A stretch of DNA of 64,000 bases from Escherichia coli (GTDB lineage: Bacteria; Pseudomonadota; Gammaproteobacteria; Enterobacterales; Enterobacteriaceae): NCBI RefSeq assembly GCF_044647545.1, contig NZ_CP172818.1. One strand, 5' to 3'. Every line of letters begins with the position of its first letter. The stretch's first letter is position 1. Of this stretch, positions 41,050 through 44,917 are shown one piece after another. The notes below the pieces were generated by a model. That model saw only the letters and a program-made list of their open reading frames with translations, was not told where the DNA came from and did not search any database. The position numbers and the translations under genes were made by a program.

Positions 41050-41457
41050 ATGAACGAGAAAACTTTAGGTCAACGCATTAGAGAAAGACGTAAGCAGGTA
41101 GGCTTAAGTCAAAACGGTTTAAGCAAAGCTGCTGGCGTATCTGGCTCATCAATTTCATTATGGGAAAGTGACCATACAGCCCCGCGCGGGCAAAATTTGC
41201 ATCGCCTCGCCGAGGTATTGCAATGTTCACCAACCTGGATACTGTTTGGCGACGAGGACAAAACACCAGCTCCCCCTGTTTCACTCGATAGTGCCTTAGA
41301 CTTATCGGAAGATGAGTTAGAGATGCTGCGTTTGTATCGCGCACTTCCTAAATCAGAGCAACAAGCACAACTCAGCGAACTCCGCGCCCGCGTTGAGAAT
41401 TTTAATCGCCTGTTCACCGAGCTATTAGAGGCTCGCAAACGCTACAAGCATCAATAA
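41050..41457 (+). CDS. dicA: HTH-XRE repressor DicA, 135 aa
   Basis: MNEKTLGQRIRERRKQVGLSQNGLSKAAGVSGSSISLWES... Confidence 0.9.
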   Translation: MNEKTLGQRIRERRKQVGLSQNGLSKAAGVSGSSISLWESDHTAPRGQNLHRLAEVLQCSPTWILFGDEDKTPAPPVSLDSALDLSEDELEMLRLYRALPKSEQQAQLSELRARVENFNRLFTELLEARKRYKHQ

Positions 41458-41649
41458 TCATCCCTTCACAAAATTTTAAAGCCTTACATTTCAATGTATT
41501 GGCTTTATCTTGCGCCAATACTTGAGTTTTCTCATCAAAAAACCTTGACGAAAAATAATGAGAAAACTAAATTACTTCCATCAAGACACCGCACGGTGTT
41601 CTCAGCAAACAGTTCCGCTACCCCGGCGTTAAGGGGAAATGAGGTCAGC

Positions 41650-41802
41650 ATGGATACTATCGATCTTGGCAACAGCGAATCTCTGGTATGTGGCGTGTTC
41701 CCCAACCAGGACGGTACGTTCACCGCGATGACATATACCAAAAGCAAAACGTTTAAAACCGAATCTGGCGCGCGTTGCTGGTTAGCCAGAAACACTGACT
41801 GA
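41650..41802 (+). CDS. ydfA: YdfA, 50 aa
   Basis: MDTIDLGNSESLVCGVFPNQDGTFTAMTYTKSKTFKTESGARCWLARNTD. Confidence 0.75.
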   Translation: MDTIDLGNSESLVCGVFPNQDGTFTAMTYTKSKTFKTESGARCWLARNTD

Positions 41803-41813
41803 TGAGGCTGACG

Positions 41814-42179
41814 ATGGAATTTAAAGATTTACCGTCTGATGTACAGAAAACAGCAGCTCATACATTGCATTCTGTGCTGCGAGAAATCGGGAAAGATATT
41901 GCAAGCGAGCCAGCAAAAGATCTGGCCCGGAAAATCAAGACCGCTTTCGTTGAGCTTTATAATGTTGGCACTGACTCTGAAACTGTCGAGACCAAGACCG
42001 TAAGTTCACCAATATTCTCACTTGAGCCAGGCGTATTATCAGGTGAAATATGCACCGAGATTTCCAGCGAACTGCTTCCGGTAATACGAGAAGCAATTTG
42101 CCGTCGCGGTTTGGATGGAAGTTACGATCATGACGTCCTGCAAGTTCTCAGGACAATGGTGACTTCACTGGGGATTTGA
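41814..42179 (+). CDS. single 121-aa ORF covering the region I recall as two small genes (ydfB and ydfC) in K-12
   Basis: GAGG RBS then ATG (MEFKDLPSDVQKTAAHTLHSVLREIG...); uninterrupted frame to 42179. Confidence 0.55.
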   Translation: MEFKDLPSDVQKTAAHTLHSVLREIGKDIASEPAKDLARKIKTAFVELYNVGTDSETVETKTVSSPIFSLEPGVLSGEICTEISSELLPVIREAICRRGLDGSYDHDVLQVLRTMVTSLGI

Positions 42180-42621
42180 TCCCTGCGTCCTCTAACCTTT
42201 TGATATAGCGGTCCTCCAAGAAGCGGTAAATTTTGTCGAAATCATCTTTCCCCTCTGTTTATTCAGAGGATTACAGGACCCGTAAGTAGCGGCATACATT
42301 TCAACCGTTTTATCAAAAATATAAGAGACAAATTCTTCTTTAGTCATATAGATTTCCTTCAATGGGTTATTCGGAAAGAAGGATACCACTTCGCCTGACG
42401 TGTTAAAAGCAGGCATACAACACGAAAGCGCACGGCGAAGTTCGTCTCACTGTACGGTGTCGTTAAATTTAATTCGACCGTGCGCTTCCGGTTGTGGCAA
42501 CCCGCGAAATGGCGCGGCGGTAAGTATGGCGGGGTTATTCCTTCCCCGTTGAGGACACCGAGTTGTCAGGTTGACCATACGCTTAAGTGACAACCCCGCT
42601 GCAACGCCCTCTGTTATCAAT

Positions 42622-42679
42622 TTTCTGGTGACGTTTGGCGGTATCAGTTTTACTCCGTGACTGCTCTGCCGCCCTTTTT
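42622..42679 (+). ncRNA. dicF: DicF sRNA (53 nt) plus its terminator U-tail
   Basis: tttctggtgacgtttggcggtatcagttttactccgtgactgctctgccgccc followed by ttttt. Confidence 0.8.
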
Positions 42680-42848
42680 AAAGTGAATTTTGTGATGCGG
42701 TGAATGCGGCTGAGCGCACGCGGAACAGTTAAAACCAAAAACAGTGTTATGGGTGGATTCTCTGTATCCGGCGTTAATTGTTAACTGGTTAACGTCACCT
42801 GGAGGCACCAGGCACCGCATCACAAAATTCATTGTTGAGGACGCGATA

Positions 42849-43037
42849 ATGGAAACGTTATTACCAAACGTTAATACGTCTGAAGGTTGTTTTGAAATTG
42901 GTGTCACTATCAGTAACCCTGTATTTACTGAAGATGCCATTAACAAGAGAAAACACGAACGGAAGCTATTAAATAAAATATGCATTCTTTCAATGTTGGC
43001 CCGTTTACGTCCGATACAAAAAGGATGCTGGCAATGA
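42849..43037 (+). CDS. dicB: cell-division inhibitor DicB, 62 aa
   Basis: METLLPNVNTSEGCFEIGVTISNPVFTEDAINKRK... Confidence 0.9.
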   Translation: METLLPNVNTSEGCFEIGVTISNPVFTEDAINKRKHERKLLNKICILSMLARLRPIQKGCWQ

Positions 43038-43317: not shown

Positions 43318-44232
43318 ATGAGTAAAGTCTTTATTTGCGCCGCCATTCCGGACGAACAGGCAATAAAGGAAGAAGGTGCCGTCGCTGTAGCCACTGCCAT
43401 TGAAGCCGGTGATGAACGTCGCGCCCGCGCAAAATTTCACTGGCAATTCCTGGAACATTATCCGGCTGCTCAGGACTGCGCTTATAAATTTCTTGTTTGC
43501 GAGGATAAACCCGGTATACCCCGCCCTGCCCTCGATTCCTGGGATGCTGAATATATGCAGGAAAACCGCTGGGATGAGGCGTCTGCTTCCTTTGTCCCGG
43601 TCGAGACTGAATCCGATCCGATGAACGTCACTTTTGACAACCTAGCCCCTGAAGTACAGAACGCTGTCATGGTTAAGTTCGACACATGTGAAAACATCAC
43701 TGTTGATATGGTGATTAGCGCACAGGAATTGTTGCAGGAAGACATGGCAACATTCGACGGCCATATCGTTGAAGCGTTGATGAAAATGCCAGAAGTTAAC
43801 GCTATGTATCCGGAGCTTAAGCTGCATGCCATCGGGTGGGTTAAGCATAAATGTAAGCCTGGTGCCAAATGGCCCGAAATTCAGGCAGAGATGCGCATCT
43901 GGAAAAAACGTCGCGAAGGTGAACGCAAGGAAGCCGGAAAATACACGTCTGTTGTTGATCTCGCCCGCGCCAGAGCCAATCAACAGCACACTGAAAATTC
44001 AACAGGAAAAATCAACCCGGTCATTGCTGCCATTCATCGCGAATACAAGCAGACATGGAAAACACTGGATGACGAACTGGCCTACGCTCTCTGGCCTGGT
44101 GATGTGGATGCCGGAAACATTGACGGCAGCATCCATCGCTGGGCAAAAAATGAAGTTATCGACAACGACCGCGAAGACTGGAAGCGTATCTCGGCATCAA
44201 TGCGCAAACAGCCTGATGCCCTTCGCTCACGA

Positions 44233-44256
<24 letters not shown>
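43318..44256 (+). CDS. ydfE: Qin prophage protein YdfE; last few codons read into the IS2-like remnant
   Basis: 312-aa ORF; from about 44233 the DNA is IS2 insD-like (cgccagaatgcgctgttgcttga...), so the C-terminus is insertion-derived. Confidence 0.75.

Positions 44257-44917
<661 letters not shown>

Follow-up and report, generated by a model that had tools for sequence, protein, structure and literature searches.

The question raised by the dicF locus of Escherichia coli contig NZ_CP172818.1 (assembly GCF_044647545.1) is what is held in the stretch of about 440 nucleotides (nt) that lies immediately upstream of the small RNA (sRNA) DicF. The window analyzed here is a stretch of 64,000 nt of this contig, and the interval in question comprises its positions 42180–42621. 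Cell division, metabolism, and the virulence of enterohemorrhagic E. coli (EHEC) are under the control of DicF, which is also the earliest known case of an sRNA excised from an mRNA. A first-pass annotation of the window had treated the interval as a single stretch without convincing coding capacity, consistent with the long structured precursor from which DicF is processed, and it had left room for a second sRNA or a small peptide. Our analyses indicated, with good confidence, that the interval is composed of two unrelated parts: the remnant of a minus-strand gene on the left and the maturation cassette of DicF on the right. This cassette includes a conserved leader domain of 121 nt (42490–42610, plus strand), located between the end made by ribonuclease III (RNase III) and the RNase E linker, which is shared with cassettes that carry other sRNAs.

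The right part of the interval (42412–42621, plus strand) very likely corresponds to the DicF maturation cassette of a polycistronic early-left transcript of the dicB type. In E. coli K-12, DicF is excised from a polycistronic transcript and has no internal promoter (PMC10448788, confirming Faubladier et al., 1990). A 190-nt species owes its 5' end to RNase III, and the 53-nt species is produced by RNase E (PMC10448788), the dependence of DicF processing on RNase E being described in two of the sources (PMC10448788; PMC5069750). By primer extension, the 5' end of the long form was found to depend on RNase III, and the 190-nt form is stable and accumulates upon RNase E inactivation (PMC10448788). 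The DicF precursor and its processing by two nucleases are therefore already known for this locus. Alignment of the window with K-12 showed near-identity from 42458 to beyond DicF, while further upstream the arms of a hairpin are conserved and its apical part differs; homology to K-12 was found for the 190-nt region, and the printed K-12 precursor sequence agreed with the window. On the supplementary precursor sequence of PMC10448788, a distance of 190 nt measured backward from the U tract of the terminator placed the 5' end at GGUUGUGG, around 42490 in the window. This position is the first base of the leader and falls in the 3' arm of a long imperfect hairpin (hairpin 1; 42416–42497, plus strand) of about 28 pairs, which was located by folding and by the inverted repeat 42423–42435/42478–42490.

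The segment containing hairpin 1 (42405–42505) folded with −36.4 kcal/mol (z = −2.9), and one out of 200 shuffled sequences was as stable. Since this double-stranded hairpin is long enough for RNase III and holds the length-mapped 5' end of the 190-nt form, it is probably the RNase III substrate. Its arms covary between cassette types (AAGCGCAC/GUGCGCUU versus GAGAGCAU/GUGCUCUC), and the apical parts are replaced wholesale. The 3' arm terminates in GUUGUG, a sequence that doubles as the 5' strand of helix P1 of the leader, and a hairpin ending in GUUGUG precedes 223 of the 226 leader copies that have the P1 5' strand (217 of them 72–132 nt). On the 3' side of the apex of hairpin 1, the motif UGUCGUUAAAUUU (42458–42470) is predicted to be unpaired, and it is kept across the hairpin variants although their apical stems differ completely. 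At the other end of the leader, an 11-nt linker on the plus strand (CUGUUAUCAAU; 42611–42621) ends at the RNase E site 42621/42622. We take the cut to fall after 42621, between AUCAAU and UUUCUGG, a placement that follows the published 53-nt DicF sequence. In the predicted fold, this site lies inside a hairpin loop formed with the 5' end of DicF. DicF itself (42622–42674, plus strand) adjoins the interval, as had been proposed: Rfam family RF00039 matched 42623–42674 with 76.7 bits, and the terminator U tract occupies 42675–42679 on the same strand.

The leader domain is made up of four helices. P1 (GUUGUGGC/GCUGCAAC; 42491–42498/42598–42605) closes the domain; P2 pairs CCGCG with CGCGG (42502–42506/42513–42517); P3 is a variable hairpin with GGGG and CCCC in the window (42531–42534/42544–42547); and P4 (GAGUUGUCA/UGACAACCC; 42560–42568/42588–42596) carries an invariant loop of 19 nt. 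A candidate pseudoknot would join GUAUGG (42524–42529) to CCAUAC in the P4 loop (42575–42580). Covariation was assessed on a MAFFT alignment of 34 diverse copies, with partners slid by one to three columns and 500 shuffles as controls. Standard pairs filled 95.8% of the cells in the helices, compared with 34–60% when the partners were slid. Changes on both sides were found in 12 pairs of the leader, versus 4.5 ± 1.4 in the shuffles, none of which reached 12 (0/500), and in P3 alone seven or more distinct compensatory stems were seen. When the 195-nt RNA was folded, the minimum-energy structure also contained P1–P4. A covariance model built on the leader detected a single copy in the window (139.6 bits, E = 6.5e-40). 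The first-pass annotation had pointed to GC-rich palindromes on this strand, and these were confirmed as the inverted repeat of hairpin 1 and further ones up to 42599, in a region with a GC content of 0.52–0.59. A longer-range pairing of GCGGGG with CCCCGC, also visible as an inverted repeat, was discarded in favor of the local P3 hairpin, since the P3 variants covary locally while the distal strand is constant.

None of the known RNA families accounted for this domain. A cmscan of 42100–42900 with Rfam 15 (E ≤ 10) gave no match inside 42180–42621; the matches obtained elsewhere in that region were DicF, a sub-threshold STnc100, and one noise match. The leader is a four-way junction, yet ARAGORN found no tRNA or tmRNA gene in 42300–42900. 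The leader, as a conserved covarying domain, is absent from Rfam and from the DicF literature that we found, a coverage outside which Faubladier and Bouche (1994) lies.

Evidence that the leader is a module in its own right came from other phages. Searches of phage genomes by blastn with a word size of 11 detected the leader without DicF in cdtI and related Stx2c phages, in Salmonella phage F1055, and in P1, P7, and SJ46. A scan of viral contigs showed that it precedes at least eight different 3' parts, each of them with an intrinsic terminator, and the 3' parts of cdtI, F1055, P1, and P7 were not called DicF by Rfam. Among 12 cassette types, mean pairwise identity was 0.815 for the leader; for its flanks (90 nt on the 5' side and 85 nt on the 3' side) it was about 0.60 in each case. 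Judged by these identities, the leader is more conserved than the differing sRNAs located downstream, DicF included. Two further arrangements were found. In the first, seen in phage PhiR5_2 and 80 complete E. coli genomes, a P1 mini-hairpin without P2–P4 (GGUUGUG-AAUA-ACAAC) comes after hairpin 1 and precedes another sRNA. P1-like phages show the reverse arrangement, in which P2–P4 are kept without hairpin 1 or helix P1. These two arrangements indicate that the hairpin, the P1 clamp, the inner domain, and the sRNA head are separable modules.

Some other features of these variant cassettes were observed. The leaderless cassette of PhiR5_2 (L128, 1501–1660) has an sRNA-like sequence with the seed AUUGCUGUGUGUAG and a weak DicF score of 29.5 bits; kil lies downstream of it, the phage being one with N, and the same GU-rich seed also follows full leaders in L166, L178, and L236. 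AgvB had been suspected there from a CA-rich seed, and it was dropped, since AgvB is encoded in the late region of phages of the lambdoid group. Three DicF loci from viral contigs (L005, L096, and L243) miss hairpin 1 and helix P1, and from their sequences they appear to have undergone a deletion between the short direct repeats ACGCGAAA, in the 5' arm of the hairpin, and CCGCGAAA, in P2. Loci of the Salmonella phage F1055 type (L178 and L126) have a 131-nt version of hairpin 1 with an apical insertion that contains GGTTCGATTCC, the canonical T-arm sequence of tRNAs; this insertion may be the remnant of a tRNA or of an attachment site. A scan of genome contigs with a 16-mer found the leader in four of 120 loci (Escherichia albertii twice, Citrobacter sp., and one metagenome-assembled genome), almost all of the matches being due to chance because the pattern is too short. 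As to its taxonomic breadth, we limit the claim to phages of Enterobacteriaceae.

The boundary between both parts of the interval was apparent from their distribution. In a megablast search with 42100–42700 as query against 5,426 complete E. coli genomes, the right part (from about 42379 or 42412 to 42700, its start varying by lineage between 42379 and 42458) was present in 4,331 genomes, with a median of two copies and a maximum of eight, and the left part in 386 only. Most of the 107 distinct versions, taken from reference loci and viral contigs, become similar to the window at 42412–42419, which coincides with the 5' base of the long hairpin. The GC content is 0.41 in the left part and increases to 0.52–0.59 in hairpin 1 and leader. 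Upstream of 42412 the window has sequence of the mEp460 type, with an ORF (open reading frame) of 125 amino acids (aa) and the minus-strand gene, where K-12 has ydfB/ydfC. On its plus strand, the left part (about 170–200 nt) is only 3' untranslated region (UTR) or spacer that differs among prophages. The interval is accordingly not one unit, and its reading as the DicF precursor held for the right part of about 210 nt, near-identical to K-12, and failed for the left part, occupied by the gene remnant. A small stem-loop on the plus strand (GCCTG/CAGGC; 42393–42414), read from the sequence, adjoins the 5' side of the long hairpin, and copies of the K-12 type have at that position a different but equivalent stem (CCCTGA/TCAGGG).

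On this basis a maturation route can be proposed. Transcription would start at a DicA-repressed promoter near 41545–41573, as carried over from K-12. RNase III would then cut the long hairpin, leaving an RNA of about 190 nt with its 5' end around 42490, as extrapolated from the near-identical K-12 locus. Finally, RNase E would cut at 42621/42622 to give the 53-nt DicF, the 3' end of which would be set by the terminator at 42675–42679. The sequence GUUGUG can pair either with UACAAC at the 5' base of hairpin 1 (42416–42421) or with the 3' strand of the leader, GCUGCAAC, and both pairings are mutually exclusive because they use the same GUUGUG. RNase III cleavage may therefore free GUUGUG and switch it into P1, in which case the new 5' end of the 190-nt form would be buried in that helix. 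A paired 5' end slows the entry of RNase E, and a buried 5' end would explain why the 190-nt form is stable and accumulates when RNase E is inactive. The single-stranded AU-rich linker would be offered to RNase E at a constant spacing, which would give a defined 5' end to whatever seed is grafted. We are confident about the identity and anatomy of the locus; that the leader is a dedicated, portable platform for the maturation and stabilization of interchangeable sRNA seeds is proposed tentatively, as a possibility to which we give somewhat less than an even chance.

Several points weigh against this interpretation. The positions of the RNase III and RNase E cuts are taken from K-12 on the basis of homology, the 5' end of the 190-nt form is mapped by length to within a few nt, and the "813/814" numbering of PMC10448788 is given without a stated reference point. 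The leader structure was derived from the very sequences on which it was assessed, many of them closely related. Secondary-structure prediction, proposed by the first-pass annotation as a check, bore out the structured character of the region, with hairpin 1 more stable than expected and P1–P4 recovered by folding, but the stability of the 195-nt fold did not go beyond that of shuffled sequences (z = −1.2), and because of this the leader is supported by covariation rather than by energy. The pseudoknot is backed by one double change, in phage P1, and by two wobble changes. Moreover, the invariant sequences of loop and junction (the 19-nt loop of P4 and CGGUAAGUAUGGC) exceed what a passive spacer or a 5' clamp would need, and the platform model fails for some copies, since P1-like phages keep P2–P4 without hairpin 1 or P1.

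These last points bear on a different reading of the leader, namely that it is itself a functional RNA, binding a protein or ligand or modifying RNA polymerase, which decides between termination at the sRNA and read-through into dicB/kil and the recombination genes. The leader always lies at most about 70 nt upstream of an intrinsic terminator in early operons under repressor control, the ban operon leader of P1 among them, and its invariant loops and junctions followed by a variable downstream part are the typical pattern of an aptamer with its expression platform. The retention of P2–P4 in P1-like phages agrees with such a role, and several leader-bearing phages have no annotated N gene while the leaderless variant is found in a phage with N, an association that is anecdotal as it comes from a few loci. 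Nevertheless, inspection revealed no conserved antiterminator pairing that involves the varied terminators, and termination at DicF in K-12 is efficient enough for the 53-nt RNA to be the known product (PMC10448788 and the DicF literature). A comparison with the put RNAs of phage HK022 was made, since these are also cis-acting folded phage RNAs of early operons located upstream of terminators. The put RNAs (PMC9378689) have about 70 nt, two stems, and a triplex, and occur as two copies (putL and putR) near PL and PR, whereas the leader has four helices over 121 nt and one copy per immunity region, as in the window. Homology to put was rejected, since the leader covariance model gave no match in HK022 (best 9.4 bits, E = 0.57) and the architectures differ. 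We consider it unlikely that the leader acts in this way, and slightly less likely still that it represents an undescribed class of phage cis-regulatory RNAs balancing termination and read-through, with the interchangeable sRNA part as expression platform.

The presence of a second sRNA with its own promoter in 42180–42621, which the first-pass annotation had allowed for, would have a precedent in sRNA-17 of E. coli K1, a 193-nt RNA detected by rapid amplification of cDNA ends (RACE) and Northern blot and assigned an ArcA-regulated promoter fragment (PMC7719688). Its primers map to cassettes of the cdtI type, where they place the RNA between the 5' strand of P1 (CGTTGTGG) and the terminator; the "promoter" fragment corresponds to the upstream region on the hairpin side. 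In L131 (12319–12741) and other loci of the cdtI type, sRNA-17 lies on the same strand and at the same cassette position as the 190-nt DicF. In the window, for which sRNA-17 had been a lead taken from a review article, the published primers and probe were absent even with up to four mismatches, which shows that the window does not encode sRNA-17. A promoter scan found no promoter-like site on the plus strand between 41574 and 43400, and the evidence from K-12 points to an RNase III-dependent 5' end and to the lack of an internal promoter (PMC10448788). The length and 5' end of sRNA-17 fit an RNase III product equally well, and sRNA-17 may be such a product because the reported promoter fragment covers the region upstream on the hairpin side. 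An independently transcribed second sRNA in the interval was therefore considered very unlikely. A small protein encoded on the plus strand within 42400–42660 was extremely improbable. ORFs of 50, 36, and 29 aa with GTG or TTG starts do exist there, and the 29-aa one (42571–42660) is present in 65 of 78 variants; however, none has an ATG start or a Shine-Dalgarno sequence, the 36-aa ORF keeps its length in 36 of the 78 variants only, and leader substitutions are compensatory across helices instead of falling on third codon positions. ORFs of 36 and 31 aa shift in length or vanish among variants because of 1-nt indel polymorphism, and the 29-aa ORF persists because the DicF sequence that it overlaps is nearly invariant. 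Plus- and minus-strand ORFs within the leader were likewise set aside as not conserved among variants. The DicF maturation cassette was retained as the preferred reading of the right part.

The left part of the interval holds a frameshifted copy, and not an intact member, of a 66-aa phage gene on the minus strand (phrog_34441/WP_000159335.1; 42148–42347), which was recognized by a profile match and by alignment to the relative L001. In the window it reads as two pieces, 42347–42192 (51 aa) and 42219–42148, and the frameshift maps to 42256/42257, where one G is missing (CTCT-GTTT on the minus strand, compared with CTCTGGTTT in relatives). The start codon is ATG 42347–42345, preceded after a 6-nt spacer by the Shine-Dalgarno sequence AAGGAA (42359–42354), both read from the sequence; the same ATG is the start annotated by the Prokaryotic Genome Annotation Pipeline (PGAP) in L001. 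The 74-aa minus-strand ORF that had been described as lacking a Shine-Dalgarno sequence is an N-terminally extended reading of this gene, since AAGGAA precedes the internal ATG at 42347. In relatives the intact product has 66 aa and is the RefSeq hypothetical protein WP_000159335.1, annotated in phage mEp460 too. The phrog_34441 profile covers residues 1–66 in L001 (E = 1.5e-50) and only residues 1–34 in the window, whose ORF showed no full-length, single-frame match to this 66-residue profile; the match stops at residue 34 because of the missing G. The claim of no convincing coding capacity thus stood in that neither strand has an intact ORF of convincing length, and fell in that a 66-aa gene, disrupted by the loss of 1 nt, occupies 42148–42347. 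The small peptide that had been envisaged corresponds to a real protein gene, but on the opposite strand, already listed as hypothetical in RefSeq, and frameshifted in the window.

Homologs of this protein remain 65–66 aa long down to 54% identity, with conserved termini, and two or more further frameshift alleles of 51 aa are known (P0012, with 12 member sequences, and P0017). A 71-mer carrying the frameshift allele of the window was found in none of the 394 complete E. coli genomes that carry this segment, the best-listed of which differed from it by one base over a span of 72 bases. The missing G is a private mutation or a sequencing error. As read from the sequence, the 1-nt deletion is predicted to inactivate or truncate the gene. 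Alternatively, the ORF could be functional as a 51-aa (or 74-aa) variant, or the frameshift could be a sequencing error in an intact 66-aa gene. The N-terminal 30 residues, start codon, and Shine-Dalgarno sequence are all intact, 51-aa alleles with the same alternative-frame end exist in public data (those of P0012 and P0017), and the loss of one base within a GG dinucleotide is a plausible assembly error. On the other hand, the 51-aa frame loses the conserved C-terminal half of the protein (the second helix, DAG..PVKSPL), the allele of the window is absent from the complete genomes mentioned, and the break points differ among the three 51-aa alleles, which looks like independent decay. We regard these alternatives to a broken gene as rather unlikely. 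If intact, the gene would share 32 nt with the end of the 125-aa ORF, and its transcription would run counter to that of the dicB-type operon. The AlphaFold model of the 66-aa protein is a two-helix hairpin (pLDDT 81); it had no BFVD match better than E = 0.9, and the protein no Pfam match above threshold. A structure-based function was therefore dropped, as neither database offered informative relatives, and the gene is a small accessory gene of mEp460-like lambdoid prophages.

The early region of the window belongs to a lambdoid prophage of the Qin/mEp460 type. The ORF list contains a divergent dicC-like ORF on the minus strand and a dicA-like repressor ORF of 135 aa (41050–41457). They are followed on the plus strand by the promoter-like site from the promoter scan (41545–41573), which we read as the DicA-repressed start of the early-left transcript, by a DUF1391 (YdfA-like) ORF identified with Pfam (41650–41802), and by the 125-aa ORF of the dicB-type early operon (41802–42179). 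This ORF matched phrog_33007 over residues 5–125 (E = 1.3e-82), and its counterpart is annotated as a hypothetical protein in L001 and phage mEp460. Downstream of DicF lie DicB (42849–43037, plus strand; Pfam, E = 3.6e-37), a ydfD-like ORF, and an exonuclease gene. The interval 42180–42621 is thus located directly 5' of a bona fide DicF, on the same strand, in a dicA/dicC-controlled operon with dicB downstream. This gene order makes its plus strand the stretch from the last upstream ORF to DicF, and it is the 3' UTR of the 125-aa ORF.

Other features were observed around the DicF-dicB spacer. A perfect 19-nt inverted repeat (42684–42702/42813–42831) brackets this spacer and ends just 5' of the dicB ribosome-binding site; it is probably a second RNase III duplex, by which the 3' end of the 72-nt form of DicF is made. 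Such a form, with an RNase III-made 3' end, has been described (PMC5069750 and the DicF literature). The spacer (42672–42881) also gave the sub-threshold match to Rfam STnc100, with 40.1 bits against a gathering score of 47. Further downstream, a near-pure poly(A) tract of about 55 nt (44395–44450), with its A runs interrupted by four C's, is unusual for E. coli. It is found at the junction between a truncated exonuclease ORF (43318–44256) and a C-terminal fragment of an IS2/IS3-family transposase (ORF 44369–44917), and it could be a reverse-transcribed insertion scar or an assembly artifact.

The 190-nt form of DicF has hitherto been treated as a mere intermediate, and its 5' two-thirds turn out to be a conserved, covarying domain, with a conservation above that of DicF. 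These observations, together with the reuse of the domain before at least eight sRNA heads in lambdoid and P1-like phages, make the biogenesis and evolution of prophage sRNAs directly testable. They also join sRNA-17 and the "dicF-like region" of P1 into one cassette family, and they provide a seed alignment for an RNA family missing from Rfam. A smaller point concerns annotation: in the "non-coding" gap, the left half corresponds to a hypothetical gene that had been annotated before and is frameshifted in the window.

Among known systems, the closest is the 190-nt form of DicF from the Qin prophage of K-12, which has the same operon position, strand, RNase III hairpin, RNase E linker, and terminator as the window; the DicF publications that we found (PMC10448788 among them) report the cleavages and make no mention of a leader domain with a conserved fold. 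The sRNA-17 of E. coli K1 RS218 (PMC7719688), of about 193 nt, occupies the equivalent place in an mEp460-like prophage and is analogous to the 190-nt DicF in length and ends. It differs from it in the sRNA head and, in RS218, in the sequence between the P1 strands, and it has been described as a primary transcript with an ArcA-regulated promoter, in contrast to the processed 190-nt DicF. The "dicF-like region" in the ban operon leader of P1 and P7 (AF234173) likewise has P2–P4 of the leader (91–93 bits) followed by a short terminator-ended RNA, under the control of the main repressor; it differs in having no RNase III hairpin or P1 helix, in its C1-controlled promoters located directly upstream, and in a 3' part that is not Rfam DicF. 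By analogy, the paired 5' end that P1 would provide may be likened to the 5'-terminal stem-loops that protect RNAs from RNase E and stabilize intermediates. A further parallel may be drawn with 3'-UTR sRNAs of the MicL type (cited in PMC9438474), in which stem-loops flanking a single-stranded AU-rich RNase E site would set the exact 5' end of an sRNA that binds Hfq. Unlike in those sRNAs, the leader is a large multi-helix domain coupled to an RNase III hairpin and common to many unrelated seeds.

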